Shown in pieces: positions 1,431-28,320 of a stretch of 32,000 bases of DNA (its first letter is position 1; every line of letters begins with the position of its first letter). A program made the translations under genes and the position numbers. The stretch is from Candidatus Iainarchaeum sp. Its GTDB lineage: Archaea > Iainarchaeota > Iainarchaeia > Iainarchaeales > JACQJH01. The DNA is taken from NCBI GenBank assembly GCA_016205145.1, contig JACQJH010000001.1:90001-122000 (forward strand), in the 5' to 3' direction. The notes under the pieces were generated by a model. That model saw only the letters and a program-made list of their open reading frames with translations, had not been told where the DNA came from and did no database searches.

Positions 1431-1910
1431 TCATGCCAGTTTTTTCTTGAGCCTTTTTTCAACGCCTTCCGGCACGAAGCCTGAAACGCTGCCCTTGAGT
1501 TTGGCGATTTCCTTGACGGTGCTTGAGCTCAGGTAAAAGTATTCCGCGCTTGTGACAATGAAAACCGTTTCGGTCTGCGGCGACAGCTGCCTGTTCACTG
1601 TCGCCTGCTGGAATTCGAATTCGAAATCCGAGAGTTCGCGCATTCCCCTCAGTATTACAGAGCATTTTTTTGCCCTCACATAGTCTACGAGCAGGCCTTT
1701 GAAGGAATCGACTTCTATGTCCAGGCCTTTCGCCGCGTTCTGAATCATTTCCTTTCTTTCCTGGACCGAAAAAAGCGGTTTCTTGTTCGGGTTGTCGGTC
1801 ACTGCAACGATTATTTTGTCGAAAATCTTGAGGCCGCGTTTTATGACATCAAGGTGCCCGAGTGTTATCGGATCAAAGGTTCCGGGATAGACCGCGGTTT
1901 TTTCAGACAT
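1431..1910 (-). CDS. coaD: phosphopantetheine adenylyltransferase, bacterial type
   Basis: 159 aa, collinear with bacterial PPAT: AVYPGTFDPITLGHLDVIKRG (nucleotidyltransferase T/HxGH motif), ILRGMRELSDFEFEFQ, YLSSSTVKEIA. Its start overlaps the coaE stop by 8 nt (AATGTCTGA). Confidence 0.9.
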   Translation of the reverse strand: MSEKTAVYPGTFDPITLGHLDVIKRGLKIFDKIIVAVTDNPNKKPLFSVQERKEMIQNAAKGLDIEVDSFKGLLVDYVRAKKCSVILRGMRELSDFEFEFQQATVNRQLSPQTETVFIVTSAEYFYLSSSTVKEIAKLKGSVSGFVPEGVEKRLKKKLA

Positions 1911-2475
1911 TTTTTATTCCCGCCTTTTCAAGGAATCTGCGCACCCCGGCTTCCAGGCTTTTTTCCGCGCCCGCATTATTTATGCTGAAATCCGCCTTTT
2001 TAACCTTCTGTGAAAGCGGCATCTGCGCCCTGACGCGCTGGAGGGCCTGCTTTTCCGTCAGGCCTTTTTTTTCCAGCCTCGCGACCTGCTGGGTTTGCCT
2101 GCAGTAGACCGCAACGCTTTTGGAGAAGCAGTTTTCAAGCCTTGCCTCGAAAAGCAGTGGAACGTCGACAAAGATTATGGCGCATTTCCTGCGTTCCAGG
2201 GCGGAAAATTTTTTGAGCAGTTCCCTGAGCACGAGCGGGTGGAGTATGCGTTCAAGCCTTTCCCTCGCCTTTGCGTCGGAAAAGATTTTTTCGGCCAGCT
2301 TTTTCCTGTCATTCGAGCCGAACTCTTTTTTCACGCGCTTTTTGACTTCCGGCTTTTTGTGCAGCTGCGCGACTATTTCGTCGCAGTCAACGGTTTCAAA
2401 GCCCCTGCGTTGCAGGATTTTGAGTACGGTCGACTTGCCGCACGCTATGCCGCCCGTCAGCGCGATTGTCTGCAT
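1903..2475 (-). CDS. coaE: dephospho-CoA kinase, bacterial/eukaryotic type
   Basis: 190 aa. P-loop IALTGGIACGKST, followed by DCDEIV, ILHPLV and FVDVPLLFE in the order seen in CoaE. Confidence 0.85.
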   Translation of the reverse strand: MQTIALTGGIACGKSTVLKILQRRGFETVDCDEIVAQLHKKPEVKKRVKKEFGSNDRKKLAEKIFSDAKARERLERILHPLVLRELLKKFSALERRKCAIIFVDVPLLFEARLENCFSKSVAVYCRQTQQVARLEKKGLTEKQALQRVRAQMPLSQKVKKADFSINNAGAEKSLEAGVRRFLEKAGIKNV

Positions 2476-3949: not shown

Positions 3950-5425
3950 ATGCCTGGAAACGCCAATGATAATGCCTTGACCCAGGTGCACAGCCCGCCC
4001 GCGCGCGATTTCAATGCGATGCAGTCGCGCCTTTCGGCAATGTCCGTGGAAGTGAAAAAGTGGAAGGAATGCGTTGTAGTGCACCACCATGACGCCGACG
4101 GGATTTCAGCAGGCTCGATTGCTGTGCAGGCCCTGCTGCGCAAAGGCATTGCAGTGAAGCACAAGGCGATAAAGCAGTTGTACAGGGAAGACTTTGAAAT
4201 GCTCCTCGCATTGGGCGAAAACTTTGTCTTTGTCGACTTCGGTTCCGGCCAGCTCTCGGATTTGAAAAAACATTTTCCGGAAAATTTTCTAGTTTTGGAC
4301 CATCATGCGCCGCAGGAAGACGAAAGCGGCAGGATTGTCGAACACGCATTCCATGCAAACCCCCTGCTTTTCGGCTTTGACGGCGGAAACGAGCTGTCGG
4401 GGGCGGGCATGGCGTACATTTTTGCGAAAACGCTTGATGCAAACAACAATGATTTGGCGGCATTGGCTGTTGTCGGGGCTGTGGGAGACATGCAGGACCT
4501 CGCATCCGGAAAGCTTGTCGGCCTGAATTCGGAAATCGTTTTGAAGGATGCGGTCGAAGCAGGCGTTCTTGGAGTGAAAAACGATTTGCGCCTGTACGGA
4601 AGGATTTCAAGGCCCCTGGTGCAGATGCTGTTGTTTTCAACCTCGCCCGTGTTGCCCGACCTCACTGCGCGCGAGGAGAACTGCAAGTCGTTCCTGCACG
4701 GCGCGGGCATCACCCTGTCGGATGAACACAATGCTTTCAGGAGCTATGAGGATTTGGCCATTGAGGAAAAGAAAAGGCTTTCAACAGCGCTTGTATTGCA
4801 CATGAATTCCTTCAATGTTCCCGAGTGGAAGATCCAGGAATTGTTCGGCGAAGTCTACACGCTTTTGCATGAAGGCAGAAAAAGCCCTCTGCGCGACGCA
4901 AAAGAATTTTCGACATTGCTGAACGCAGTCGGAAGGCACGGCGAACCCGATCTTGGCCTGGCCGTCTGCCTCGGGAACCGTGAAGAAGCGTATGGCAATG
5001 CGCTTGCATTGCTTGCCGAGCACCGCAGGCAACTCGCGCAAGGAATCGAGCTTGTTTCCGGAAACGGTCTGCAGGAATTCGAATCGTTTTATTTTTTTGA
5101 CGCGGGCGAAAAAATCAGGGACTCGATTGTCGGCATCGTTGCAGGCATGCTTTATTCAAGCGGAATCATCGGCACAGACAGGCCGATAATCGCGATGGCA
5201 AGGTATGACGACGGCACAATCAAGGTGAGCGCGCGCGCAACCAAAGACCTGGTGAGAAAAGGCCTGCATCTCGGAAAGGCTTTGCGAAGCGTCTGCGACA
5301 AATTGGGGGGCATTGCCGAAGGAGGGGGGCATGCGATTGCGGCAGGCTGCAAGATCGGGGAAAACGAAAAGGAAAGGTTTCTTGAACTGATGAATGAAGA
5401 GGTAAAGAATTATTTACGCGGCTGA
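3950..5425 (+). CDS. DHH-family phosphoesterase, archaeal RecJ/GAN-like nuclease
   Basis: 491 aa. DHH motifs occur in order: VVVHHHDADGISAG (I), FVDFGSG (II), LVLDHH (III), and GGGHAIAAG (DHHA1-type GGGH). Confidence 0.8.
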   Translation: MPGNANDNALTQVHSPPARDFNAMQSRLSAMSVEVKKWKECVVVHHHDADGISAGSIAVQALLRKGIAVKHKAIKQLYREDFEMLLALGENFVFVDFGSGQLSDLKKHFPENFLVLDHHAPQEDESGRIVEHAFHANPLLFGFDGGNELSGAGMAYIFAKTLDANNNDLAALAVVGAVGDMQDLASGKLVGLNSEIVLKDAVEAGVLGVKNDLRLYGRISRPLVQMLLFSTSPVLPDLTAREENCKSFLHGAGITLSDEHNAFRSYEDLAIEEKKRLSTALVLHMNSFNVPEWKIQELFGEVYTLLHEGRKSPLRDAKEFSTLLNAVGRHGEPDLGLAVCLGNREEAYGNALALLAEHRRQLAQGIELVSGNGLQEFESFYFFDAGEKIRDSIVGIVAGMLYSSGIIGTDRPIIAMARYDDGTIKVSARATKDLVRKGLHLGKALRSVCDKLGGIAEGGGHAIAAGCKIGENEKERFLELMNEEVKNYLRG

Positions 5426-8408: not shown

Positions 8409-10781
8409 ATGAACGCACGCCTTGTTTTTGTCCTGCTGCTTGCGTTGCTTGCATTGGCTGGCTGTGCCGCGGTCGACAAGAAGACAATCGAGGCGTTCAA
8501 GGCAATTCCTGAAGTGCAGTCTTTTCTCGCGCAGAACCCCGATGCGCAGGTAACAGGCTATTCGCTTGACAAGCTGACGGTTGAAGGGTCCAAAAAGGAG
8601 CTCCTGAAGCAGTGCCCTGACCTGGAAATCAAGGACTATTTCCTGGTTTCGGCGAAATCCAAGGACGAAAGGCTTGAGGCATTGCTTGACAGGAAGTCAA
8701 GGGAAGTTGCCTGCATTTTGCGCACTAAAACCGCGAGGTGCGCCCTGGACGACTTCAAGTGCAGTGAAAGCGCCGGTCAGGGACAGGCAAAGCCGAAGTG
8801 CGTGGAAGGCGAGGTTTTGTGCAGCAACCAGTGCGTTGTCCCGTTGTGCGCATCTAACAGCGAATGCAACGACAATGACGCCAAAACCACTGACACGTGC
8901 AGCAGCGCGGGCAAATGCAATGCGAAATGCTCCAACAAGGAGGTGACCTGCAGGCCCAACCAGCTTTTGTGCAACGGCGCGTGCAAGAATGTTGCGTGCA
9001 GGGAGGACAAGGACTGCAATGACAGGGAAAGCCTTACAACTGACAAGTGCAGGAAACCGGCGTCATGCGAATCCTTCTGCGAAAACACGCCTTCAAGATA
9101 CCCGGTAAAAGTAAGCGTGCTGTCCGTTGACGATTTTTCGCCCAAGGTTGACGGCCCAATCAGCATTTTTGTCGGAGTAGCCAATCCTGACAACCACCAG
9201 TTGCAGTATACCCTGTTTGCCGGCAAGAAGGCGTTTTCAAACGTTGCCGCCATCAAGACGACAATCCTTGATTCAGGAAAGCAGAAAATCAAGGCGGTAA
9301 TCCACGACGTTGAAGCGGACGAGAACGTTTCCAAGGAAATCGAAATCAATGTGCGGCCGGCAACCGCAACTTCCCTGTGCGCGATTGACGAGAACTGCGA
9401 CGACGGCATAGACGGATCAGTCGACAAGTGCGAGAAGGCAGGCACCTGGGATGCACTGTGCAGGAACACTTACGCTGATTCTTCGCAAAAAGCGCTTCCA
9501 TCGATAGCGGGCTTTTCAAAGGCAAAAACCGAAAGCCTGAAATGGATTGAAGGCGGAACAAAAACCGTTTACTCGAAAGGCGGCGTGTCGGTTGAAGTGC
9601 TTGTCCTGCCGCTCAAAAACCATTTCCTGGCACTGGATTTTGCTTCAAAAAGCCTTGACACGTTCCAGAAAAAAACCTTTGTCGACGAAAACGGCGGCTA
9701 TTTCACTGCAAGCTATTTCACCTATTCAAAGGTTTTCTGGGTATCCGGCAACAACGCTGTAGCAGTAATGGCCCTGAACAAGGAAAAAGTCGACCTGGAG
9801 CAGTTCAGGAGCGCGCTCTTTGAAGTGCTTCCAAGCAATTCTGCTGCGCAGGGCATCTGCAGGCGCGGCGAGATTGCCTGCAACAACGAGTGCATCAAGC
9901 CTGTCTGCGTTAAGGATCTGGACTGCAATGACAAGAACACTGGCACTGATGACAGGTGCGAGAAGTCAAACAGCTGTGAAGCGGAGTGCAAGCATTCTGA
10001 TTTCGCTTTGCCTCCCGCCATAGACTATGTTTCATCGGATGTTTTCCGGCCAAATGCCGGGCAGAACTTTTCAGTCGCAATGTCCGCTGTCAGCGTTTCC
10101 GGCAACGCCCTGGATTACTCGATTGCCTTCGGGTTGAACGAGTTCAAGGGCAAGCCATCCGCAACGAATTGGTTTTCAAAAGCAGGCAAGCAGAAAGTGA
10201 AGCTGACTGCAAGAGACGTTGTTTCGGGAAAAACAGCAGTCAAGGAGCTTGAATTCAATATCCTTGCCACCACCGCGGCGCCGAGGTGCACTGCGGATGC
10301 CAACTGCTCCGACGGCATAGCAACGACAATCGATTACTGCCAGGGTTCAGGCACCGCCGGCTCGTTCTGCAAGAACATCCCTGAGACCAGCGAGGAAAAG
10401 CAGTTTGCCCCGAAGCTCGGCGGTTTCAAGCTTTCGGTTTTGCCGGACGTCGTTTTCCCGGTCCCGGCAAGAAAAGCGGTTTACGAGAACAACGGCCTGA
10501 AGGCGGAGGTTTTCATAGCTGAATTTGAAAGCCACGAGCGCGCTCTCGATTTTGTTTACAACGGCCTGAAGACCTTCCCGAAAGAGGGAACCGAAACTTT
10601 CAAGCAGAGTTTCGGCGGCTACTTCCAGCGCAGTTACCTGTCTTACCGCAAGGTTGCATGGGTTTCCGAGAACAAGGCAGTGCAGGTTTCGTCCTACAAC
10701 GCGGAAGCGCTTGACCTCAACGCCTTGTCCGACTATTACATGATAAATTATCCGAGCAAGACAGCCCAGCCGGCAAGCTAA
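8409..10781 (+). CDS. secreted Cys-rich lipobox protein with an internal ~300-aa duplication
   Basis: 790 aa. Signal plus lipobox: MNARLVFVLLLALLALAGC. Three 8-Cys modules (e.g. CRPNQLLCNGACKNVACREDKDCNDRESLTTDKCRKPASCESFCEN). The unit 8-Cys module / Ig-like segment / short 4-Cys module / alpha-beta domain occurs twice (8949-9836 and 9858-10760). Confidence 0.75.
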   Translation: MNARLVFVLLLALLALAGCAAVDKKTIEAFKAIPEVQSFLAQNPDAQVTGYSLDKLTVEGSKKELLKQCPDLEIKDYFLVSAKSKDERLEALLDRKSREVACILRTKTARCALDDFKCSESAGQGQAKPKCVEGEVLCSNQCVVPLCASNSECNDNDAKTTDTCSSAGKCNAKCSNKEVTCRPNQLLCNGACKNVACREDKDCNDRESLTTDKCRKPASCESFCENTPSRYPVKVSVLSVDDFSPKVDGPISIFVGVANPDNHQLQYTLFAGKKAFSNVAAIKTTILDSGKQKIKAVIHDVEADENVSKEIEINVRPATATSLCAIDENCDDGIDGSVDKCEKAGTWDALCRNTYADSSQKALPSIAGFSKAKTESLKWIEGGTKTVYSKGGVSVEVLVLPLKNHFLALDFASKSLDTFQKKTFVDENGGYFTASYFTYSKVFWVSGNNAVAVMALNKEKVDLEQFRSALFEVLPSNSAAQGICRRGEIACNNECIKPVCVKDLDCNDKNTGTDDRCEKSNSCEAECKHSDFALPPAIDYVSSDVFRPNAGQNFSVAMSAVSVSGNALDYSIAFGLNEFKGKPSATNWFSKAGKQKVKLTARDVVSGKTAVKELEFNILATTAAPRCTADANCSDGIATTIDYCQGSGTAGSFCKNIPETSEEKQFAPKLGGFKLSVLPDVVFPVPARKAVYENNGLKAEVFIAEFESHERALDFVYNGLKTFPKEGTETFKQSFGGYFQRSYLSYRKVAWVSENKAVQVSSYNAEALDLNALSDYYMINYPSKTAQPAS

Positions 10782-10985: not shown

Positions 10986-11948
10986 GTGAAAAAAACAAGG
11001 ACGATTTTTATTCCACTAATACTGTTTGCCGCATTGGTCTTTGCGGGCTGCACACAGGCAAACGAAAAAACGGGTTTGCTGACACTCAGCGCCAACGAAC
11101 GCGTAAACATTCTTGACGGTGACAGGTACTGGTCATTAGGAGCAGGAAAAGCCGACGGCATAACAGGACAACCGTTGCAGGACACTTCAACAATCTACCC
11201 CGGCTCATTTTCAATAAGAGACCTCTGGGTGCAAAAAGACAGATTATTCATTGACAGAACCGGCAGAATCGGAATCGGAACAACAGCCCCAGAAGTCAAA
11301 CTTGACATAAAAGAATCCGACCAAACATACCCGCCCTTAAGAATAACCAACACGAAAAACGATGGTTACGCAGGCATCGTCTTTGGCACAGATAGCGGCA
11401 TACAAGGGCACATGGGAGCCGCAGGTTATTATGCTGCCAATCAAAAGCTGAGAAACTCCGTTTATTTCGGGTCGACAGGGGACAAAAGAGTGGTAATAAC
11501 CGCAAACGGGATTCCCAGGATGTTCATTGAGCCGACATACTTTCAAAGCTTTATAACAAATTCGCCAGATGCAAATGGATCTACATCCTTTTCTGCCTCA
11601 ACGACCATGACTGCCGGAAACCAAGGAAGAGGAATATATTTTAGGGTAATGGATATTCAGGGAACTCGGACAGCATTGAGCGTCTCATTAGATGCAGGGG
11701 GGTCCACCGGAGTTTTCAGCGTAAACGCCCAAAAACTGGAAACAAGTGGCGGTACTTCATTCACGGCACCACAGACCGCCTTGTCTGTAACACCGGAAAC
11801 AATAAGGTTAACATTACTGAATGGCGCAAGAATAAAGATAGCGTCCTCCGCACCGGCTAACAGGCAGCTTTGTATTACTGGACAGCAAGAATTGGGTTTC
11901 TGTTCGAGTGTAAATGCGGATGGTACGTGCACATGCGTGCCAGTTTAA
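10986..11948 (+). CDS. lipobox surface protein with a tail-fibre-like GIGTT motif; paralog of 31240-32000
   Basis: GTG start 7 nt after GGAGG. MKKTRTIFIPLILFAALVFAGC is a signal plus lipobox. Contains DRTGRIGIGTTAPEVKLDIKESD and a C-terminal 4-Cys motif CITGQQELGFCSSVNADGTCTC. A 200-nt stretch is ~90% identical to the inverted copy at the window end. Confidence 0.7.
   Translation: MKKTRTIFIPLILFAALVFAGCTQANEKTGLLTLSANERVNILDGDRYWSLGAGKADGITGQPLQDTSTIYPGSFSIRDLWVQKDRLFIDRTGRIGIGTTAPEVKLDIKESDQTYPPLRITNTKNDGYAGIVFGTDSGIQGHMGAAGYYAANQKLRNSVYFGSTGDKRVVITANGIPRMFIEPTYFQSFITNSPDANGSTSFSASTTMTAGNQGRGIYFRVMDIQGTRTALSVSLDAGGSTGVFSVNAQKLETSGGTSFTAPQTALSVTPETIRLTLLNGARIKIASSAPANRQLCITGQQELGFCSSVNADGTCTCVPV
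11217..11416 (+). repeat. left arm of an inverted repeat pair (partner 31796-31995)
   Basis: Hand alignment of 11217-11416 against the reverse complement of 31796-31995 gives 19 mismatches in 200 nt, with identical runs up to 32 nt (gacataaaagaatccgaccaaacatacccgcc). Confidence 0.85.
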
Positions 11949-16813: not shown

Positions 16814-18424
16814 GTGGATCAAAACCTTCCAAAAGGCCAGTCCGCCATAGAATATCTTTTGCTGTTGGGCGCCGCGATTTTGATTGCCGCGGTTGTCGTT
16901 GCCTTGATTATTTTTGTGGGTTCCGGGGGCAAGCAGTCGGCGCAAAGAGGGTCGCAGACTGTTGCTGTAGCGCAGGGGAATCTTTCCAAATCCCTTGGCC
17001 TGCCAGGCCCCATCACCGACCGCGGCGGCGGAATTTTTGATTTGAAAAAGGATTTTGGCGCGAAAGGCGACGGGGTTTCCGACGATTATGAATCGTTCAT
17101 TGCTGCTGCGGCCAAGCTGAGCGGTTCGACTGACGCAACGCTTGTCATTCCTGCAGGGGACTATAAGATTGACCGGTACAAGATTTTGGCTGCGACTTCC
17201 GACGGCAGGCTTCCAAATGGCGTAACCGACATCAAGTTTTCCGGATGCAACGGCCTGGAAATTGTCGGCTTGGGAAAGGACGCATCGGGAAACTACAAGG
17301 CAAAAGTCGAGGTCAAGGGCGACTTTTACAGGTCGGCGGACCGCAGTGCCGTCAATGCCGCGGGCGTGACGGTGTGGAGTTCCAATTCCGGTTCGGTCAC
17401 GCCGTTTTATTTCGATCACTGTAACGGATTTTCCATTTCCGGCTTGGAATTGTACGGCAACAACGACAAGATGTCGCACGATCCGCGCGTCAGAGAACAC
17501 CCGTCAGGAATGGGCATTGCGACTTATGGCTGCAAAAATTATTCGATTTCCGACATTTTTGTGCACAACTTCCAGACGGACGGCATTTACCTTGGCGGCT
17601 CGGCAAGCCCCGTGGATTCGGGCGCAACCGTTGACGGCGTGGTTTCAAGCAGCAACGGCAGGCAGGGCCTCAGCATAATTCAGGTGAAAAACTCGACAAT
17701 AAAAAACAGCGTTTTCAAGGACACCGGCATTACGGGCGGAAGCGACACAGGATATAATCCGAGGGCCGGCGTTGACATCGAGCCGAACGTGAACGTCCCC
17801 AACATAACCGAAAATCTTGTTTTTGAAAACGACGAGTTCAGCAACAACCGCGGCTACCAGATTGTTTCAAGCGCTTATGTTGGCGGAATCGTGGTCAGGA
17901 ATTCAAGGGTTTTTTCGGGAAACCAGCGCAAGCTCGCCTATTTCAGGGTGAACGGCATTACAATCGAGGGCTCCGAATTCAAGACTTCTGCAAGGGAGTT
18001 TGCCCAGGACTGGGACAAGAGCGGATTCGGGGTCACTCTCATGGCGGGCGGAACCGCGCTTATAAAAAACAATCTCATAGAGGCATCCTCGTTGGCGTAT
18101 CCTGTGAAAACCGTTGGAATCCACAGGCCTTACGTGCACTTCTTTTCGGGAAGCGGGATAACCTTTGCGGGCAACAGAATTTCCACCGACTCAAGCTTTT
18201 TTTATCCCATTTCAGGGCAGGCTTATGACACCGCAATTTATTTGAACGTCGGCGAATCCTCGAACAACACTTTTTCGACCGGCATGACCGGCTTAAACCA
18301 TTTCGCAGTCGTTTACGGCCCGGCCACAAAAGTCGTTTCAGACGCGTTTTTGCCGCGGGACAATTTCAGGCCGCAGCCGGGATATGTTTGGACTGGCGCA
18401 GGCAACTCTTATTCGCAGAACTGA
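16814..18424 (+). CDS. class III (prepilin-type) signal peptide fused to a right-handed beta-helix, pectate-lyase-superfamily domain
   Basis: GTG start. N-terminus MDQNLPKG/QSAIEYLLLLGAAILIAAVVVALI (basic residue-Gly, then Q at +1, E at +5, then a hydrophobic helix). Followed by FDLKKDFGAKGDGVSDDYESF..VIPAGDY and repeated PbH1-like turns: NGFSISGLELYGNN, YSISDIFVHNFQTDGIYLGG, GLSIIQVKNSTIKNSVF, LVFENDEFSNN. Confidence 0.8.
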   Translation: MDQNLPKGQSAIEYLLLLGAAILIAAVVVALIIFVGSGGKQSAQRGSQTVAVAQGNLSKSLGLPGPITDRGGGIFDLKKDFGAKGDGVSDDYESFIAAAAKLSGSTDATLVIPAGDYKIDRYKILAATSDGRLPNGVTDIKFSGCNGLEIVGLGKDASGNYKAKVEVKGDFYRSADRSAVNAAGVTVWSSNSGSVTPFYFDHCNGFSISGLELYGNNDKMSHDPRVREHPSGMGIATYGCKNYSISDIFVHNFQTDGIYLGGSASPVDSGATVDGVVSSSNGRQGLSIIQVKNSTIKNSVFKDTGITGGSDTGYNPRAGVDIEPNVNVPNITENLVFENDEFSNNRGYQIVSSAYVGGIVVRNSRVFSGNQRKLAYFRVNGITIEGSEFKTSAREFAQDWDKSGFGVTLMAGGTALIKNNLIEASSLAYPVKTVGIHRPYVHFFSGSGITFAGNRISTDSSFFYPISGQAYDTAIYLNVGESSNNTFSTGMTGLNHFAVVYGPATKVVSDAFLPRDNFRPQPGYVWTGAGNSYSQN

Positions 18425-18483
18425 CGTTTGCCTTTTGTGCACTTGGGCGTGCCAAAGGATTTAATTTGTGTGAATGATATTTG

Positions 18484-20031
18484 ATGGTGAAACCGATGTT
18501 TTCCCGTGGCCAGTCCGCAATCGAGTATCTGCTGTTGCTTGGCGCCGCGATTTTGATTGCCGCGGTTGTCGTTGCCTTGATTTCTTTTGTGGGTTCGGGC
18601 GGAAAGACTTCGGCGCAGGAATCAGGCGTGCAGCAGAGGCTGGCAATGCAGAACCTTGCGGCTGTTGGGGGCATGGGTTTCTCCTATTCCTGTGTTGCTA
18701 ATGGTGTCTGCGAAGCCGATGAAACAATGCAGTCCTGTTCCGCGGACTGTGCTGGCAAGCCTTTCAGGCAGTACCTGCATTTTTATTCGGCGGAGGCGGG
18801 GGGTTCTGAGGTTTCTTCCGTGCCGGCGCCCATGCTTAACGTGCCCGCTTCGGGTTTGCGGCATTATATCTATGTCGAGCTTTCCGAAATGCACGGGCAT
18901 CTCAGTGTTTACCGTTCCGCCACCGTAAACAATGCGAATAACCGGTCTGTCGCGCTTTCACCCGGCGAAATCGACGCGCTGTTCAATCTTTACGGCGTGG
19001 AAACGGGCAATCCTGTTAGAGGGAAGAGCATGAACATGAGCATACTGCAGCGTGCCGACGTGCAGAAAATCCATCATGAACTTGCACAAGGCAATCCTGC
19101 GTATAATGCAAAGTACGGCAATGGCGGCCTGGAAACAGGGGTCGGGCTTGACGGTTCCGGAATGCCCGTTCTTGATGCTTCCGACAAGCTTGTGCCGGAC
19201 AGACCGGTACAGGATTACCAAGACGGCAAAACAATGCTGTGGCCGTTTTACTACAATGCCAGCGGCAAGCATAAGATGAGGGTTCTCTGGAACCTTAACA
19301 GCCCGGCGGTCAGGGAATATCTTGTGCGGTACGGCGTGAAAACCGCCTCTTTCAGTCCAAGCGGCGACCTGTTTATTGACAACACTATTTTTCCGGGCCA
19401 GGTGCTGGAGGATTATTCATATGTTTTTTCAGGTGCAAGGAACGGCCTTGCGGCGCATCTTTCCGGCATTACATTGGAAATTCGGGCAGAAATCGTGAAA
19501 CGGCTTGACGGAAAGGGGCTGATAATGAACGCTCTCAGGTTCACAAACTCCGACAATGAGATATTTTCTGATGCTGTTGTTGATTCCGGCCAGTTTGACG
19601 GTTTGATGGCCGAAAACCAGTTTTGGCGTGATGGCATTGCCATTGGCGGTTCTCCAAGGGGTGCGACGTCCGTTGCATGGTACCGGGATTTGACGCAGAA
19701 AATGAAATCAAAAGGCAAAAAGATTCTTTTTACGGCCTCCGGCTCCGGTTTTACGCGGGCTGATCCCTCAAAGATTTTGCCAGTTTGGTTATGGTTGCAC
19801 TTGGTTGCTGATGACAGCACGTATTTTCTATTGCCGGGCAATGGAGCCGATGGCGATTCGTTTGATAACCAGTTCCTTCCGTTTGTTTTTCCGCTCGGCT
19901 ATCCGCTTGACCAAGCACCGGTGCAGGACGGCAGTGTGTGGAGCAGGCGCTATGAGCGCGGCACGATTGTTTTTGACATTTCAAGCGGAAGGCTTGACGC
20001 CATAAGGTTCGAGGAAAACCCGCCCGGGTGA
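18484..20031 (+). CDS. class III (prepilin-type) signal peptide fused to a Cys mini-module and a GH-like domain; paralog of 26452-28209
   Basis: N-terminus M(VKPM)FSRG/QSAIEYLLLLGAAILIAAVVVALI; alternative ATG at 18496. 18541-18582 is 42/42 identical to 16868-16909. CVANGVCEADETMQSCSADC is followed by ~430 aa collinear with the 26452 gene (SGQFDGLMAEN, WLWLHLVADD, GYPLDQAPVQDGSVWSRRYERGTIVFD). The enzymatic family is not confidently named. Confidence 0.8.
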   Translation: MVKPMFSRGQSAIEYLLLLGAAILIAAVVVALISFVGSGGKTSAQESGVQQRLAMQNLAAVGGMGFSYSCVANGVCEADETMQSCSADCAGKPFRQYLHFYSAEAGGSEVSSVPAPMLNVPASGLRHYIYVELSEMHGHLSVYRSATVNNANNRSVALSPGEIDALFNLYGVETGNPVRGKSMNMSILQRADVQKIHHELAQGNPAYNAKYGNGGLETGVGLDGSGMPVLDASDKLVPDRPVQDYQDGKTMLWPFYYNASGKHKMRVLWNLNSPAVREYLVRYGVKTASFSPSGDLFIDNTIFPGQVLEDYSYVFSGARNGLAAHLSGITLEIRAEIVKRLDGKGLIMNALRFTNSDNEIFSDAVVDSGQFDGLMAENQFWRDGIAIGGSPRGATSVAWYRDLTQKMKSKGKKILFTASGSGFTRADPSKILPVWLWLHLVADDSTYFLLPGNGADGDSFDNQFLPFVFPLGYPLDQAPVQDGSVWSRRYERGTIVFDISSGRLDAIRFEENPPG

Positions 20032-21665: not shown

Positions 21666-23285
21666 TTATTTTTTGCCAATGCGCTCCAGCTTTTCATCCG
21701 CCTTCTTTTCCGCTTCCAGCCTTTCCAGGCCCGCGCCTTTCTCGTAGACGAATTTCATGAGTTCGAAGACAAGCGGGGTCGCCTTTTTCGCCTGATGGAA
21801 CATTTCGATTGAAACCCTTCGGTAGTCGGCGTGTCCCTGCGGCGTCGACCTCAGCTCAACCAAGTGGTACATTTCACGCGCGTTGAGAGTGAAATACCAT
21901 CTTATTTTGTACGCGAGCGGGACAACGTATTGTGCCTGCAACGGCATTTCCTTCGCGATTTTATCGTAAGTTTCCTTCGCTCCTGCCATTGCCTTTTCAA
22001 ATTCCTTCAAAACGCCCGCCTTTTCCAGTTCGGGATAAGTGTCATAGCCGAAGTTTGCCGTCAAAAGCTGGCGTTCCTGTGTAAGCTGGCGATGTCGGTG
22101 CAAGTCACGGAAGCCGCCGTAATTTGAGAGCAAGTCGAAAGTGTAGTATGCGTTTTCGAAGCTTCGCAAAGGCTTGTGCCTGCGGTTCTGCCTGTGCGCA
22201 AGAGATGCATGGATGACTTTGCGCTTTTCCTCTTCGCCCATTGCGGCAACGATTTTTTTGAGCTGGTGCAGGGGCTTGTCGCTGTGCGCGTAAAGCAGCG
22301 CGCAAACGATTTTGTTGTCGGCTTCCATGTCAAAGTCGACCAGTTCCACTTCCTTTGCCTGCTCCGCATGTTTGCCTGCAAGCAGTTCTTTTGCGGTTGC
22401 GTCAAGGTTTGCGTTCGCCTGCCTGAAAAAATCCTGTGTCGGGCCGCCGTATTTTCCGGCCGCGCGCTTGACGAAAGAAGGAATGTAAGTCAAAAGCTCT
22501 TCGTGCAATGAAGAAGCGATGCCGTTGATTTCCTTCAATGGCGAGGCGTGCATTTTGAGTATGAGGTATTCGAACGCCCTGCCATTGCCGTACAGGCCGA
22601 GGTTTGTCAGCGTTGAAGCAGGCAGGAGGCCGCGCAGGAGGTCGCAGGTTTTAGCCTTGATTGTCGACTTGTACGCGCGGTCGGTTGTCTCGGAGTCCTG
22701 CGGAAACCATTCCTCGGCCTGTGTTCTCACTTTCGGCACGAGTTCGGCGTACGTGCCGAACAGCAAATCGCACGTTTCCACGTAATCCTTTTCGAATGCC
22801 GACTGCATTATGCCAGGCTCGAGCAGGTACTGGTATCGGCCGCCCTCTTTCTCGTCAAAGTAAACGTAGCGCGTGCTTTTTTCCAGGGGGGAGAGGCCAA
22901 TGCGTGAATCCTCGAGGACTTTGCTTGCGATGATTGAAACCTTTTCGCATGCGACGTGCGCTCCGCCTAATTCCGCGACGGAATCGTCGCCGTAGCCGAC
23001 CAGAACGCGGTCGTAAAACTCTTCGGCTTTCTTGGTTGCGATTGCCTGCTGTTCTCCGTTTCCAAGTGAATAGTTGACGATTTCCCGGAAGCCGGATTCC
23101 TTGTCGGCAATGAATTCGTCGAGCAAAAGCCTGCGCAATGGTTTCGGCGAGCGCGAATAGCGCGAGAACAGTGCGCCTGAAACGACTTCGGGCAGGTTTT
23201 TGAGGACAAAGACGTTTTTGTCCATGTTCGAAAAAAACGGTTCCAGGATTTTCCGCTCTTCCGAGGAAAAAGAATTTTCCGCCAT
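21666..23285 (-). CDS. long-form ThyX-like (Thy1-fold) protein, putative FAD-dependent thymidylate synthase
   Basis: 539 aa. The C-terminal half has FRDLHRHRQLTQERQ and TLNAREMYHLVELRSTPQGHADYR, which align with the ThyX RHR motif and NxRxLxxxxxLR...H/Q region. N-terminal GALFSRYSRS suggests a second, degenerate copy. Confidence 0.6.
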   Translation of the reverse strand: MAENSFSSEERKILEPFFSNMDKNVFVLKNLPEVVSGALFSRYSRSPKPLRRLLLDEFIADKESGFREIVNYSLGNGEQQAIATKKAEEFYDRVLVGYGDDSVAELGGAHVACEKVSIIASKVLEDSRIGLSPLEKSTRYVYFDEKEGGRYQYLLEPGIMQSAFEKDYVETCDLLFGTYAELVPKVRTQAEEWFPQDSETTDRAYKSTIKAKTCDLLRGLLPASTLTNLGLYGNGRAFEYLILKMHASPLKEINGIASSLHEELLTYIPSFVKRAAGKYGGPTQDFFRQANANLDATAKELLAGKHAEQAKEVELVDFDMEADNKIVCALLYAHSDKPLHQLKKIVAAMGEEEKRKVIHASLAHRQNRRHKPLRSFENAYYTFDLLSNYGGFRDLHRHRQLTQERQLLTANFGYDTYPELEKAGVLKEFEKAMAGAKETYDKIAKEMPLQAQYVVPLAYKIRWYFTLNAREMYHLVELRSTPQGHADYRRVSIEMFHQAKKATPLVFELMKFVYEKGAGLERLEAEKKADEKLERIGKK

Positions 23286-23350
23286 TGCCCCACCAGACTA
23301 AATTAAAGCAATGGCAATGGTTAAATATTTCACTTTTGATTATTGTTTTC

Positions 23351-26300
23351 ATGCCCCATAAAACCGGCCGGCCGCGCCATTATTCCGACAGGGCCATTAA
23401 GCGGCCCGGAAGAGGCTTTTCGCATGGCCAGGGCTCTTTGGACCGCCTGATTCTCCTCGGAATCGTGGTTTTGGTTTTCGCAGTCATAATGCTTGTTGCC
23501 TTTTCCCGTCCGCATGAAAGGGCTGACGGGAAAGTGCAGGCCTATTATGCGGGGAATGGGCGGAGTGGCGTTCGTGAAGTGTTCGACTTTTTGGGCGTGC
23601 TAAAATTTGGCATGAATTCCGGTTCCGGCGGCCCTGAAATTAAGCCCGCCGTCATTCCGGGTGACGTGAACCAAAGCAAAAAGCCGGATGTCGTGCCCGC
23701 AACAGGCACTGACAAGGAACCCGTGATTCGGGCCTGCAGCAATGACTGTTCTTCCGCCGGCTTGAGGCAGTGTTCCGGTTCCGGCTATAATGTCTGCGGA
23801 AACTTTGACGAAGACGACTGCCTTGAATGGGGTTCCTGGACAGGCTGTCCTGACGGCCGGGCGTGCGCCAACGGAAACTGCGAAGTTTCTCGCGGGGTTT
23901 TTTCTTCTGAGGGCCTTGTTTCATACTGGCGTTTTGATGATTTGTCGGATTCGTTTGGTTCAAATGATTTGGTTATGTCCGGCAATGTTGTTGCGGGTTC
24001 TTCGCCTGATTGCGCTTTCGGCGGCTGCCTTGCCCTTGATTCTTCTTCCGGGCAGGCCGAAGCCAGGGGTTTGCCGGATTCGGGCGGTTTGTCTGATTTG
24101 TCGATTGCGTTGCGCGTCAAGTTTGGCGCCGGTGGCGATACTGCCACCCGGGCCTGGGTGGCGGGCTGGGCCGATGCGCAGGGCCAGGGCGTAGGTTTTT
24201 ACCGCTATGGCGCCAGCCAGCTTGTTTTTTTCGCCAACGGCGCGGATGGCAGTTTGACTGATTGCTGGAGTTCCGCCTTGAATGACGGCAAATGGCACCG
24301 GCTGGCGGGCGAGGCGTCTGAACAGCACATAACCTTGTTTGTGGACGGGTTTCCTCTTTGTTACAAGGCGCGTTCCGGCGCATTTCTTTCCGGCGCCAGC
24401 TTCAAGGCCGGCGGCCCGGTTTCCCCATCTGGCAGCGTTCTTGTTGACGAGCTGATGGTTTTCGACCGTTCGTTCACGCAGTTCGTTCACCCGCAGGCCG
24501 GTTACACTTTGCTGGGCGCTTTGCCATCCAACGCGCTTGGCATGAGGGGGCCGGTTATAGGCGCCGGCGGCGCGGTGCCGGGCGTGTACCTGTTTGACGG
24601 CAAAATATACTTTTTTTCCAGCATGGACGCATACAACTATTATAGCCTTTGCAGTTACGCCGTTTCAGGCAGCTCCGCGCGCTCTTTTGCTGTCGAGTAC
24701 GGTGATCGTTACAATACCTTCTTCGTGGACGGGGGCTTGGTGTGTGCGTGGCCGGCAAACCGCGGGCTCGCCGTTGCGCGTCCGCCTGACGACGGCTATG
24801 CCAATGAAGGGGCGGCCGCAACCACGCGGCTGCAGGCGGGCACGTTCCTGTCAACGGCCGGCCTTGACGGGCTGCCCGTGCACCGCAAGCGCCTAATTAC
24901 CGCGGGCTGGCTCAGCCCTGATTTGAAGTCCTTAAAGGAAGACCTTGGCGTGTACGACGAGTCCGGATTCGACGGCATCGCGATAGACGACGAGGTATTC
25001 TTCAATGAACCGGGCAGGCCGTGGCCATTGAATATATTTCAGAAGACCGCCTTAAGCACGGGCCGCAGGTACCGGGAAGGGCAGTTTGACGCCGTCGCCG
25101 GAGAAGTCGGGCAGGCCCTGGGAAAAGCGAAGAACCTGAAGCATAATTACATGGTACTCTATCTGGGCTGGACGCATTCGTCGGTTCTCGGCAACCACCT
25201 GAGCCCGGTGCTCGATGCGGACGGGATACCGGTATTCGACGCCAACGGCCTTAAGCTCCATAACCTGACTGCGGACGAGCAATGGCAAATCATTGCCGGC
25301 AACGCGCGGGTTGCAGCAGGGCTGGCGAAAAAGGCCGGCCTTGAAGGAATCATAATTGATACTGAACAGAACTATTCGGTCAACACCCAGGACCCCGGTT
25401 ACATTGCTTACAAGGGTTCTCCGCTTACCCTCAGCTACGAACAATCCGTGCCGGTCAATCCGGCGCCGTTCGCCGAGTACGAGGCCGCGGCCCGCCAGCG
25501 GGGGCAACAATTGGCATCCGCGATGGCCGAGGAGTATCCGGACATGACCGTGCTCTTCCATTTTGCGTACAGCCTGTACAGCGACAAGGACAGAAAGGAA
25601 ACAGGCGGAATCGACCAAAAGAGTTATTTGGAACGGTATACCCTACTGCCTGCCTTCATCGACGGCATGCTCGAAGGCGCTCCGGGCATCCGGTTCATTG
25701 ACGGCGACGAGTGGACCTACACCATCCGGCGGCGCGGGCAACTGCTTGACCGCAAGAAGCATTTCCTTGAAAACGCGCTTGAAAAATCCGCCACAAACAC
25801 GCCCGGGAACCGACAGATTGAATACGGTCAAGAGCTGTGGGCTACCGTGCTTGAGCAGACGCCCGATGATGCAGCTTGGGTTGATGTAAACTTTATTCCC
25901 GAAGATGAGATTGAATTGGCTAAGCAGTTCGGATACGGAATCCGCGACGCCTTGCGCGCAAGCGAGGGCATGGTTCTGATTTGGCACGCACAGCGTCCGC
26001 CGTGGCCGGTCTACCGGACTGCAAGAAATGGGCAGAGGTACCGCGCCCAGGGCGTGATGCCCGATTCTTTCAGACAGGCGATAAAGGATGCGCGCAAGAA
26101 TGTCGAGGGCAACACCAATCCGGTGATGCCGGTTGTCGGTTTTGTTTCGGCAGGCACGGGGGAAAAAGTTTCAATCACTTTGCCTGAGGCAAGCGACGCC
26201 GACGGGGATTCCTTGATTACCTGGGTTGACGGCCTGCCGGAAGGCGCGTCTTACGAGCCGCTTTCCCGCACAATCGAATGGCCGAACCCGCGCGCGGGAA

Positions 26301-26377
26301 TCTACTCCCTGTCTTACGGCGCTTCCGACGGCTTTTTGGAAGCCGCGGCACAGTTCAGCCTTGTGATTTACGGCTAG
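23351..26377 (+). CDS. large secreted multidomain protein: possible degenerate class III signal, Cys-rich module, LamG/ConA-like lectin domain, ~550-aa putative TIM-barrel-like domain, C-terminal Ig/cadherin-like domain
   Basis: 1008 aa from ATG 23351; the track start 23285 would abut the divergent gene. FSHG/QGSLDRLILLGIVVLVFAVIMLV. CSNDCSSAGLRQCSGSGYNVCGNFDEDDCLEWGSWTGCPDGRACANGNC. LamG-type GLVSYWRFDDLSDSFGSNDLVMSGN...WHRLAG...LFVDG...VDELMVFDRSF. GFDGIAIDDE and GLEGIIIDTEQNY. C-terminal ITLPEASDADGDSLITWVDGLPEGASYEP...GIYSLSYGASDG. Confidence 0.8.
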   Translation: MPHKTGRPRHYSDRAIKRPGRGFSHGQGSLDRLILLGIVVLVFAVIMLVAFSRPHERADGKVQAYYAGNGRSGVREVFDFLGVLKFGMNSGSGGPEIKPAVIPGDVNQSKKPDVVPATGTDKEPVIRACSNDCSSAGLRQCSGSGYNVCGNFDEDDCLEWGSWTGCPDGRACANGNCEVSRGVFSSEGLVSYWRFDDLSDSFGSNDLVMSGNVVAGSSPDCAFGGCLALDSSSGQAEARGLPDSGGLSDLSIALRVKFGAGGDTATRAWVAGWADAQGQGVGFYRYGASQLVFFANGADGSLTDCWSSALNDGKWHRLAGEASEQHITLFVDGFPLCYKARSGAFLSGASFKAGGPVSPSGSVLVDELMVFDRSFTQFVHPQAGYTLLGALPSNALGMRGPVIGAGGAVPGVYLFDGKIYFFSSMDAYNYYSLCSYAVSGSSARSFAVEYGDRYNTFFVDGGLVCAWPANRGLAVARPPDDGYANEGAAATTRLQAGTFLSTAGLDGLPVHRKRLITAGWLSPDLKSLKEDLGVYDESGFDGIAIDDEVFFNEPGRPWPLNIFQKTALSTGRRYREGQFDAVAGEVGQALGKAKNLKHNYMVLYLGWTHSSVLGNHLSPVLDADGIPVFDANGLKLHNLTADEQWQIIAGNARVAAGLAKKAGLEGIIIDTEQNYSVNTQDPGYIAYKGSPLTLSYEQSVPVNPAPFAEYEAAARQRGQQLASAMAEEYPDMTVLFHFAYSLYSDKDRKETGGIDQKSYLERYTLLPAFIDGMLEGAPGIRFIDGDEWTYTIRRRGQLLDRKKHFLENALEKSATNTPGNRQIEYGQELWATVLEQTPDDAAWVDVNFIPEDEIELAKQFGYGIRDALRASEGMVLIWHAQRPPWPVYRTARNGQRYRAQGVMPDSFRQAIKDARKNVEGNTNPVMPVVGFVSAGTGEKVSITLPEASDADGDSLITWVDGLPEGASYEPLSRTIEWPNPRAGIYSLSYGASDGFLEAAAQFSLVIYG

Positions 26378-26417
26378 CGGCCTATAACCGTTTGGCATTC
26401 TTTCATGGGCATGCTTT

Positions 26418-26492
26418 CTGTTTTAAAAAACCTTTCAGGGCAATCGTTTTTATGCATCCAAGCGACGCCATCAAGGGAACCGCGTCAAAAAG
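26418..26492 (+). repeat. direct repeat copy A: promoter plus first 13 codons (partner 28245-28320)
   Basis: ctgttttaaaaaacctttcagggcaatcgtttttatgcatccaagcgacgccatcaagggaaccgcgtcaaaaag is ~84% identical to copy B, with an identical 21-nt core cgtttttatgcatccaagcga. The TATA-like ttttaaaaaa (26421-26430) lies ~26 nt upstream of the conserved ATG at 26452. Confidence 0.85.
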
Positions 26493-28209
26493 ATTTTTCA
26501 TGCCGCATTTGAAACCGGTTGTTGTCTGCGCATTTGTGTTGCTTGTTTTGCTTTCCGGTTGCACCGCCACAAAAAGCAAAGGCGTGGAAAAGCCGGTTGA
26601 TTCCGACAAAAACTTTTTGGATTCAAACCAAGCCAAGTCCGCGCCCGAAACTGGCGGGCCGCGACAGCCGCCAACCACGGAATTGGTTGCTGAACAACCG
26701 GACGCCAATGTTCCGGATGCAAACGCCGGCGCACCCGACGTGAATGCAGCGGCTGCTGTCGTGTTTTGTAACCGGAACGGCGCCTGCGACACAAACGAGT
26801 CCGCGGTTTCCTGTCCGGCCGATTGTGCCATTCTTTCCGGAGGCGGAGGAGGCGGCAATTCGCCACAGCCGCCGTCAGGAAACGATAGCGGTTCGTGCAA
26901 TTCGGACGGCGCATGCAACGGAAACGAGGACACAGCTTCATGCCCTGCTGACTGCAGTGTAAGGCAGTTCAGGCATTATTTGCGGTTTTATGCTTTGGAT
27001 TACTATAATCGGTTTTCAACAAAGCCGCCGGCGCCGGAAGGGCTGGTTGAATTCACCATCACGCAGGGCACGCCTTTTGGCAACCTGCAGGATTATACTC
27101 ATTTTAATGTGACGGATTCCGGCCATGTTGTTTTGACAACTTCCACTGCGCCCAAAACTCTTGTTGCGTTGAGCCAAAGCGAGCTTGACGGCTTGTTTGC
27201 GCAGTATGGTTTTGGCGGGGATAAAAACAACATCTATTCTGGCGTGATTGCAAGGGCTGAAGTCGGGAAAATCCATGAGGAACTTGTAGAACGCCATCCG
27301 GAGCTTTTTCCGAACGGCACTGAATTGTTTGTCGGCGCCGTCATAGGGCCGGACGGGTTGCCCGAGCTCGTGGACAACTTTCCGGTCAGGGAAAGAAGCG
27401 ACATTGCCGACTACCAGCTTGGCAAAACAATGGTTTACCCGCTTCCATATTCGCCGGTCGGCTACGGGCGGTACCGGACGCTTTGGAATCACGGCAGCTG
27501 GGCGGTCAGGGTATATCTTGCAAGAAGGGCCAATAAGCTGGTGAATGGCGTTCCAGGCGTGGAGAATATTTTTTTGGATAACGTGCAATTGCCGGCTTAT
27601 ATCAAATATCTTGGCTCCCGTGTTGGTTCGGTTCCGGTGCCAAATTATGTTTCGCCCGGAAGCAGGGATGAACAGTTTGCTGTTTATGCGAACAATTTTG
27701 TTTCGGTTCTTACTGCCGTTCGCGTAAAAACCGGCGCAAAAATGCTTCTTAACGGTTTGTATGAAGTGAAGGCTAACCAAAGCATTTTTTTTCAAAAACT
27801 AATTGCGTCCGGCCAGTTTGACGGCCTTATGACGGAAAACGGGTTTTTTGCTGACGGCGTGGAAAACAATTTGGGCGGCAGCGCGGCAAGCGTGCAATGG
27901 TACTGGGATCAGGTGCAGTGGTTGAAGCAAAACGGCAAAAACGCGGTTTTTTTGGCGGGCGGGAAGGACGCTTCGAAGGCATCCAAGGCCTGGCTTTGGG
28001 TGCATTTAGTTGCTGACACCAATGTTTTCTTTTCGACCAATCCCAATGAACATTTTGACGTTTACGATTCTCCTTTGGGGTATCCTCTTGACCAGGCTCC
28101 GGTAAAAAACGGCAGCGTGTGGAGCAGGCGCTACGAGCGCGGCACGATTGTCTTTGACGTTTCGGGCGGAAGGCTTGACGACATAAAGTTTGTCGAAGGC
28201 CCGGCATAG
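26452..28209 (+). CDS. lipobox-anchored GH-like protein with two Cys mini-modules; paralog of 18484-20031
   Basis: MHPSDAIKGTASKRFFMPHLKPVVVCAFVLLVLLSGC; alternative start at 26500. FCNRNGACDTNESAVSCPADCA, a GGGGGG linker and CNSDGACNGNEDTASCPADCS. The body is collinear with the 18484 gene (SGQFDGLMTEN, WLWVHLVADT, GYPLDQAPVKNGSVWSRRYERGTIVFD). Confidence 0.8.
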   Translation: MHPSDAIKGTASKRFFMPHLKPVVVCAFVLLVLLSGCTATKSKGVEKPVDSDKNFLDSNQAKSAPETGGPRQPPTTELVAEQPDANVPDANAGAPDVNAAAAVVFCNRNGACDTNESAVSCPADCAILSGGGGGGNSPQPPSGNDSGSCNSDGACNGNEDTASCPADCSVRQFRHYLRFYALDYYNRFSTKPPAPEGLVEFTITQGTPFGNLQDYTHFNVTDSGHVVLTTSTAPKTLVALSQSELDGLFAQYGFGGDKNNIYSGVIARAEVGKIHEELVERHPELFPNGTELFVGAVIGPDGLPELVDNFPVRERSDIADYQLGKTMVYPLPYSPVGYGRYRTLWNHGSWAVRVYLARRANKLVNGVPGVENIFLDNVQLPAYIKYLGSRVGSVPVPNYVSPGSRDEQFAVYANNFVSVLTAVRVKTGAKMLLNGLYEVKANQSIFFQKLIASGQFDGLMTENGFFADGVENNLGGSAASVQWYWDQVQWLKQNGKNAVFLAGGKDASKASKAWLWVHLVADTNVFFSTNPNEHFDVYDSPLGYPLDQAPVKNGSVWSRRYERGTIVFDVSGGRLDDIKFVEGPA

Positions 28210-28244
28210 GTCAGCCGTTTTGTTCGCTGTTTGTCGTATCCGCG

Positions 28245-28320
28245 CTGTTTTAAAAATCCTTTTCCGGCCATTCGTTTTTATGCATCCAAGCGAAGCAATC
28301 CGGGCTTCCGCGTCAAAAAG
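28245..28320 (+). repeat. direct repeat copy B: promoter plus first 13 codons of coaBC
   Basis: ctgttttaaaaatccttttccggccattcgtttttatgcatccaagcgaagcaatccgggcttccgcgtcaaaaag. The TATA-like ttttaaaaa (28248-28256) lies ~28 nt upstream of ATG 28280. Confidence 0.85.

Follow-up and report, generated by a model that had tools for sequence, protein, structure and literature searches.

An open reading frame (ORF) of 790 amino acids (aa) with an ATG start occupies positions 8409..10781 (+) of the DNA analyzed here, a 32,000-nucleotide (nt) stretch of Candidatus Iainarchaeum sp. (contig JACQJH010000001.1, positions 90,001 to 122,000) that is referred to throughout as the window. A polyprenyl diphosphate synthase is encoded 38 nt upstream of the gene and a class I/II aminotransferase downstream of it. 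The protein, which contains 37 Cys in total, has an exact match in NCBI (MBI4052502.1) from a 613-kb contig of a Candidatus Diapherotrites archaeon metagenome-assembled genome (MAG); the gene is therefore already known in databases, deposited only as a "hypothetical protein." The source lineage (Archaea; Nanobdellati (DPANN); Candidatus Iainarchaeota) agrees with the DPANN origin suggested by an earlier reading of the letters alone, hereafter the original prediction. Two further features of the window agree with an archaeal origin, namely a gene at 3950-5425 that clears the RecJ_archaeal equivalog cutoff (498 bits versus 360) and two genes downstream of the ORF that start with archaeal class III (pilin-type) signal peptides. 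An assembly artefact was considered and rejected, as the gene occurs at 100% identity in two independent Logan assemblies. The protein consists of an N-terminal domain, an 8-Cys module, and then two consecutive units, each composed of an 8-Cys module, a PKD-like immunoglobulin (Ig) domain, a 4-Cys core module, and an α/β terminal domain. The coordinates of these parts are collected in the table.

Parts of the 790-aa protein, with nucleotide positions in the window
Part	Position (nt)	Strand	Residues and basis
Signal peptide and lipobox	8409..8465	+	aa 1-19, MNARLVFVLLLALLALAG|C; Cys19 is the predicted lipidated residue
Membrane-proximal N-terminal domain	8466..8798	+	aa 20-130; Cys69, 102, 111, 118
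8-Cys module 0 (extra copy)	8799..8930	+	aa 131-174; exact pattern match
8-Cys module 1, opens unit 1	8949..9080	+	aa 181-224; exact pattern match
PKD-like Ig domain 1	9081..9377	+	aa 225-323; homology to copy 2 (z=15.7; hhalign E=1e-9)
Core Cys module, 4-Cys variant 1	9378..9461	+	aa 324-351, C-x5-C-DD-x8-C-x9-C
Orphan α/β terminal domain, copy 1	9462..9857	+	aa 352-483; AlphaFold2 model
8-Cys module 2, opens unit 2	9858..9989	+	aa 484-527; exact pattern match
PKD-like Ig domain 2	9990..10286	+	aa 528-626; Foldseek and sub-threshold Pfam PKD match (aa 543-614)
Core Cys module, 4-Cys variant 2	10287..10370	+	aa 627-654, C-x5-C-SD-x8-C-x9-C
Orphan α/β terminal domain, copy 2, with stop codon	10371..10781	+	aa 655-790; homology to copy 1

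The two units align with each other from end to end. Smith-Waterman alignment of aa 181-476 with aa 484-784 scored 467, with 97 of 283 positions identical (34%) and two small gaps, whereas 300 shuffled controls scored 36 +/- 5 (z=86). Each sub-domain is also significant when aligned alone, with z values of 12 for the 8-Cys module, 16 for the PKD-like domain, 12 for the 4-Cys module, and 32 for the terminal domain. Comparison of unit profiles built from the window sequence and its ortholog using hhalign returned a probability of 100% and E=1.8e-43 over 299 columns. The original prediction had proposed an old tandem duplication of a ~300-aa unit with halves about 30% identical by eye; the internal-repeat check, which was set beforehand, bears out the duplication, and the measured identity is close to that estimate. 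At the DNA level, the remnants shared between units are faint (17-40 nt, some of them 909-912 nt apart) and no tandem-repeat signal was found within the gene, so a recent DNA duplication was rejected. Faint remnants, the lack of a tandem-repeat signal, and the agreement of two assemblies together mark the duplication as old and not as a product of assembly. Judged from these alignments, both units evidently arose through one ancient tandem duplication. No paralog of the protein was found elsewhere in the 32-kb window.

The Cys-rich modules fall into one family. The pattern C-x6-C-x3-C-x4-C-x5-CND-x8-C-x5-C-x3-C has exactly three matches in the protein, the 8-Cys modules 0 to 2, which lie where the prediction had placed them and include the extra copy ahead of unit 1. 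Module 0 aligns with modules 1 and 2 at hhalign E=2.8e-10 and 1.8e-13, respectively. For the 4-Cys module, the prediction stood only in part. The module is present in both units, but the proposed spacing of C-x5-C-x10-C-x8-C does not hold, the last gap being x9, and the module is not a separate type. Its spacing and conserved residues are those of the second half of the 8-Cys module, C-x5-C-[NDS]-D-x8-C-x9-C, with 4-Cys module 2 reading C-S-D rather than C-[ND]-D and the 8-Cys form carrying one additional Cys within the x9 stretch. A hidden Markov model (HMM) built from the 8-Cys second halves alone scored 4-Cys variants 1 and 2 at 23.6 and 19.0 bits, and none of 500 shuffles per module, in which composition and Cys positions were kept, attained the real scores. 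By hhalign, the 4-Cys module matched positions 16-44 of 8-Cys module 1 (probability 93.8%, E=1.7e-7), and a DNA repeat family joins nt 8892, 9042, 9423, and 9951, corresponding to the three 8-Cys cores and one 4-Cys core. Given the HMM scores, the profile alignment, and the DNA repeat family, the 4-Cys module and the latter half of an 8-Cys module are one and the same core. The protein thus contains this 28-aa core five times, and in three of the copies an N-terminal C-x6-C-x3-C extension precedes it.

As read from the sequence, the 36 Cys beyond the lipobox Cys are divided 4 + 8 + 8 + 4 + 8 + 4 along the protein, and the even number in every module is as expected for disulfide pairing. In 8-Cys and 4-Cys modules alike, AlphaFold2 predicted a β-hairpin preceded by a short turn or helix at the D-x-D-C-N-D motif. 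Comparison of both module forms with Pfam, including EGF, LDL-A, MopE (PF11617), and other Cys repeats, gave nothing at E<=10, and a PDB profile search with the Cys-module alignment (A4) gave 0 matches. In eukaryotes, EGF-like, LDL-receptor class A, and TNFR Cys-rich domains act as rigid spacers in ectodomains. The modules described here are like these disulfide-rich spacers in their small size (28-44 aa), fixed Cys spacing, and conserved acidic residues, but their Cys spacing differs, they have no Pfam or PDB sequence match at E<=10, and there is no sign of common ancestry.

A full-length query of 5.8 billion clusters retrieved only two proteins. One of them (P0001) is an ortholog of 793 aa from an ENA metagenome, 70-71% identical to the protein studied here, in which all 37 Cys are conserved with identical spacing. 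The other (P0002; 791 aa, JGI 3300033388) is alike only in its Cys modules. It has a signal peptide, at least seven tandem core modules, an Ig-like region, and a C-terminal transmembrane helix as its anchor instead of a lipobox; its genomic context was uninformative. The core also occurs in a 1346-aa secreted protein with 114 Cys, encoded on a 32%-GC metagenomic contig (L006 7724-11764, JGI Ga0209542_10002838; L005 is identical). There, four exact C-x5-C-[ND]D-x8-C-x9-C cores are mixed with three MopE "putative metal-binding" motifs and with seven copies of a longer, ~42-aa variant (C-x5-C-G-x-D/N-G...C...C), and the MopE model matches other segments of the protein, not the core modules. The next large gene on that contig (12525-14534) shares the N-terminal region of the 1346-aa protein. 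Both of these metagenomic Cys-rich repeat proteins share with the Diapherotrites protein a signal peptide and the 28-aa core, C-x5-C-[ND]D-x8-C-x(5)-[C]-x(3)-C, but they contain neither its α/β terminal domain nor its N-terminal domain. That further proteins with an anchor or a secretion signal also contain the core is consistent with a general role as an extracellular spacer. The distribution of the core was sampled through three independent proteins, while the exhaustive search described below used the terminal domain. Word-index searches with short queries (the N-terminal domain and the Cys-module alignment) returned nothing, missing even the known ortholog. The 90%-identity cluster that holds the 790-aa protein is represented by a 52-aa Xanthomonas UvrD fragment (P0005), an apparent clustering artefact that probably explains why the full-length search did not retrieve the query itself.

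The N-terminus, MNAR-LVFVLLLALLA-LAGC, is a Sec-type signal peptide that combines a positive n-region, a hydrophobic h-region, and a lipobox with Cys at position 19. LAGC conforms to the pattern [LVI][ASTVI][GAS]C, in line with the lipobox that had been proposed, and the signal peptide is the sole hydrophobic segment of the protein (KD19 maximum of 2.6 at aa 5). The lipobox Cys is kept in relatives, as LSGC in the ortholog and as FSGC in a lipoprotein of the Methanoperedenaceae MAG LFW-24 (identity of the MAG taken from PMC8561730). Over 100 aa, the N-terminal domain and the beginning of this 353-aa lipoprotein (L004 9983-11044) share 34% identity, a match that takes in the lipobox Cys, Cys69, and Cys102. 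The LFW-24 lipoprotein shares only this domain with the protein of the window and continues with two ~115-aa repeats that weakly match the archaeal type IV pilin N-terminal family (PF07790, E=1.3e-7). Since the likeness is limited to the N-terminal domain and other repeats follow it, the domain may be a reusable membrane-adjacent module of archaeal lipoproteins. When scanned as an isolated domain, its sole Pfam match is DUF6656 (PF20361; 17.6 bits, E=0.0029), under the gathering threshold of 27. The possibility that the N-terminal domain is a degenerate copy of the terminal or PKD-like domain was rejected (hhalign probability <=1.1%).

An Ig- or PKD-like middle domain had been anticipated, and structure prediction agrees. 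The AlphaFold2 model of unit 2, built from a 4-row alignment, has a mean pLDDT of 68, with values of 75-91 in its Ig part. In Foldseek searches of the PDB, Ig-like domain 2 matched PKD domains of ColG (4tn9, 4jrw, 2y72, and 4aqo) with TMt of 0.81-0.84 and a root-mean-square deviation (rmsd) of 1.7-1.9 Å over 87-89 columns (E of 1e-4 to 7e-4), followed in rank by PrtV, Epp, and archaeal PKD domains, the latter including the Methanosarcina surface-layer protein 1l0q. As modeled, the middle domain is a PKD fold, though not a certified PF00801 member by sequence. Pfam PKD (PF00801) matches copy 2 only, at 18.3 bits and E=0.0023, below the gathering threshold of 23.5, and no Pfam PKD match was obtained in the ortholog. 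Sequence identity to known PKD domains is 19-22%, and unlike them the copies here are flanked on both sides by Cys-rich modules.

The terminal domain, referred to below as the head, was not recognized in the original prediction, and our searches likewise yielded no sequence relative or significant fold relative. Copy 1 modeled alone (pLDDT 72.9, pTM 0.72, again from a 4-row alignment) has the predicted topology bb-a-bbbb-a, and the secondary-structure elements of copy 2 occur in the same order in the unit 2 model. The two copies are 35% identical (z=32; hhalign E=1.5e-17), and the four copies from the protein and its ortholog share invariant H54, D59, E45, K34, Y37, S84, S95, N97, and E108. 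An exhaustive hmmsearch of 1.84 billion representative proteins with the 4-row head profile recovered only the ortholog, which belongs to the family itself, and one spurious hit (P0003, E=4e-4) that was rejected as a translated tandem repeat. The head has no match in Pfam, NCBIfam, or PHROGs, and none in the Pfam LolA clan even at E<=10. Scans of the whole protein against Pfam, NCBIfam, and PHROGs placed no family above threshold, and PDB sequence searches with the full protein, the head profile, and the Cys-module profile gave nothing or chance matches at E>0.1. Foldseek searches of the head against PDB and BFVD returned nothing at E<=0.001; the best BFVD match has E=0.017. The nearest structural neighbors in the PDB are LolA/RseB/MucB-type folds (2v42, 2v43, and 6in9), with RseB at E=0.015 and TMq ~0.4, and Dip2269 (3v7b, TMq 0.52). 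These resemble the head in having an antiparallel sheet packed against a helix, but the matches are sub-significant (E>=0.015, TMq 0.39-0.52, rmsd 7-8 Å), carry no sequence signal, and involve folds with about twice as many strands. We looked for a LolA/LolB/RseB-like fold as a Foldseek match at E<=1e-3 or TM>=0.5, or a clan match by sequence; the modeled head gave no such evidence for that assignment.

Comparison of the gene with its ortholog gave a ratio of nonsynonymous to synonymous substitution rates (dN/dS, Nei-Gojobori) of 0.14 overall and of 0.09-0.30 in the ten segments with estimable dS. In two segments, 8-Cys module 1 and PKD copy 2, dS was saturated, and the overall dS of ~1.5 is near saturation, so the ratios are rough. 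By this codon comparison, all parts of the protein are evidently under purifying selection, as expected from the original prediction that the duplication has been maintained. Divergence is asymmetric between the units, with the PKD-like domain and head of unit 1 being 77-78% identical to the ortholog and those of unit 2 61-70%. The gene is genuine and its sequence well conserved, but it is an orphan specific to its lineage and does not amount to a new kind of system. Modular surface proteins that combine a lipid anchor with Ig-like domains and Cys-rich spacers are a familiar kind of object; what is new relative to any library is the 28-aa core, its 8-Cys elaboration, and the head domain.

On balance, we favor by a modest degree the interpretation that this DPANN archaeon secretes the protein as a lipoprotein of the cell surface that is disulfide-stabilized, archaeol-anchored, and presents two diverged binding heads. 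Its parts differ in strength: the protein is very probably anchored, extracellular, duplicated, and modular, whereas assigning binding or adhesion to the heads is plausible but tentative. In archaea, lipobox proteins have their anchor in a thioether bond between the lipobox Cys and archaeol, which has been demonstrated for lipoproteins of Haloferax; AliA, the enzyme of this lipidation, is found in Euryarchaeota and DPANN (PMC12462473). The protein resembles the AliA/AliB-dependent lipoproteins of Haloferax volcanii (PMC12462473) in its canonical lipobox, predicted extracellular location, and conservation of the lipobox Cys in relatives; it differs in its DPANN host, in that lipidation is predicted only, and in a mature part that resembles no characterized lipoprotein. 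By analogy, a thioether link between Cys19 and archaeol would tether the protein to the outer face of the membrane. The small Cys modules would be knotted by disulfides into rigid spacers, and their conserved D-x-D-C-[ND]-D...T-x-D-x-C motif might hold a Ca2+ site; together with the PKD domains they would hold the two orphan ~125-aa α/β heads away from the membrane. The heads, in turn, would bind an extracellular partner, which could be the envelope of another cell, a hydrophobic ligand, or some polymer. That the units have diverged to unequal extents suggests different specificities of the two heads today. Several observations weigh against this interpretation. No homolog gives a function, the head is without detectable relatives, and its model is of moderate confidence only (pLDDT 73, 4-row alignment). 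The protein contains only 3 N-glycosylation sequons. The family has only two members, so that conservation is one pairwise comparison with dS close to saturation. A broader proposal goes further, in which the 28-aa C-x5-C-[ND]D-x8-C-x9-C element represents an undescribed disulfide- or Ca2+-stabilized spacer family widespread in the surface proteins of ultra-small archaea and bacteria and the ~125-aa terminal domain a new fold or family for partner or host recognition in a DPANN archaeon; we regard it as doubtful.

Other functions can be assigned to the same parts. The terminal domains might carry lipids or other hydrophobic ligands, like LolA, RseB, or LppX, for uptake or shuttling at the surface, with the remainder of the protein forming a stalk. 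Many DPANN archaea rely on external lipids, and a polyprenyl diphosphate synthase adjoins the gene in both known loci, although this adjacency may be coincidence. The best sub-threshold Foldseek matches of the head point in the same direction, namely RseB/MucB (probability 0.99, TMq 0.39-0.42), Corynebacterium Dip2269, and Treponema TP0453, and RseB chains are also among the weaker hits obtained with the whole-unit model (E>=2.3e-3, rmsd ~22 Å). Set against these are the Foldseek E of 0.015 or worse, the rmsd of 7-8 Å, the TM below 0.5 for RseB, and the absence of any Pfam LolA-clan match at E<=10. Moreover, LolA/RseB barrels have ~11 strands, whereas the head has 6 predicted strands, and we consider lipid handling unlikely. 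Lower still stands an enzymatic role of the terminal domain, in which it would work outside the cell, for example, by hydrolyzing a polymer or a host envelope with its invariant His, Asp, Glu, Ser, Lys, and Tyr. Such residues are indeed among those invariant in the four head copies, PKD domains are often found with secreted proteases and glycosidases, and the top PKD matches here are a collagenase and PrtV. However, no catalytic-family match was found in Pfam, NCBIfam, or PDB, two diverged copies of a 125-aa bb-a-bbbb-a domain would be more usual for a binding module, and the conserved head residues are mostly aromatic or at hydrophobic core positions.

The Cys modules could also ligate metals, as Zn or Fe-S clusters, in place of forming disulfides, which would make the protein a metal-binding or redox surface protein; we give this the same low standing as a catalytic head. 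Its appeal lies in the 36 conserved Cys, in the co-occurrence of MopE-type putative metal-binding motifs and the core module in the 1346-aa metagenomic protein, and in a groundwater-type habitat that may, by assumption, be anoxic. In a 2026 survey of archaeal "dark" domains, binding of several metal ions was proposed for small domains that have eight conserved Cys (PMC13607799). The spacings of the modules (x6, x3, x4, x5, x10, x5, x3), however, contain neither C-x2-C knuckles nor a ferredoxin pattern, the 4-Cys variant still has an even Cys number, the modules lack a conserved His, and the location is extracellular. Least probable of all, to a marked degree, is a structural envelope protein of the S-layer type with no specific ligand. 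The protein is large, anchored, modular, and PKD-containing, and the archaeal surface-layer PKD protein 1l0q is among its fold matches. Yet S-layer proteins are usually conserved broadly within a lineage, and here a single ortholog was found among ~15 billion sequences; a lattice-forming domain signature is also missing.

DPANN archaea have very small genomes and are reliant on what their cell surface binds, and most of their surface proteins are unannotated orphans. The 790-aa protein is one such orphan that could be cleanly dissected into a predicted anchor, rigid spacers, and two diverged heads. If the head is a true recognition or lipid-handling module, it offers a concrete target for pull-down and structural work on Diapherotrites surface biology; if it is a recognition domain, the duplicated heads provide a tractable means of learning how cells of Diapherotrites attach to their surroundings or sample them. 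The 28-aa core could become a family model for annotating other Cys-rich surface proteins. General importance is limited at present because this is an orphan with two known sequences, and a family with two known members and no functional handle holds nothing surprising to a specialist in DPANN genomics.

The gene order of synthase, 790-aa protein, and aminotransferase is kept on the contig of the sole relative (L001). In the window, a 320-aa lipobox ORF (10986-11948, +) is inserted before the aminotransferase and is absent from the syntenic contig. No operon with transporters or enzymes was found, the context points to no pathway, and scans for Rfam families, tRNAs, promoters, and terminators gave nothing informative. 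The 320-aa lipobox ORF has a paralog at 31240-31983(-), 43% identical over ~250 aa, and contains a "GIGTTAPEVKLDI" region with a weak PHROG tail-fibre match (E=3.6e-4). A patch of ~121 nt at 11212-11333 recurs inverted at 31880-32000 with ~92% identity, which is where the two Logan contigs both break off. A third lipobox protein (VVSGC, 470 aa) is encoded at 29597-31009 (+); it has no NCBIfam match (E<=1e-5) and shows an internal duplication of its own, with a repeated ~130-aa unit (...FWDDSKQNPIQLSWNH...GQYYVAIEMWATGNSSPLGSIETTIENLKDGPAFPLGHVF...).

Further surface proteins are clustered in the window, comprising ORFs 16814-18424, 18481-20031, and 26278-28209 together with a 1030-aa Laminin_G_3 protein (23285-26377). 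ORFs 16814-18424 (+) and 18481-20031 (+) are adjacent and start with near-identical class III signal peptides (GQSAIEYLLLLGAAILIAAVVVALI); the former contains a right-handed β-helix domain, and the latter is a paralog of ORF 26278-28209 (+), at ~36-37% identity over ~470-515 aa. Among the remaining genes, a ThyX-like ORF (21666-23285, -) reaches an unusual length of 539 aa and contains two stretches matched by Thy1, which suggests that it may be a fused or duplicated thymidylate synthase ThyX; its exact sequence is absent from the protein collection, possibly through a different start call. Genes for coenzyme A (CoA) biosynthesis are present at 1431-1910 (-), 1903-2475 (-), and 28190-29482 (+), matching CoaD (TIGR01510, 191 bits), CoaE (TIGR00152), and CoaBC (TIGR00521), respectively. 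We take CoaD and CoaE to be bacterial-type enzymes, which would point to horizontally acquired CoA biosynthesis.

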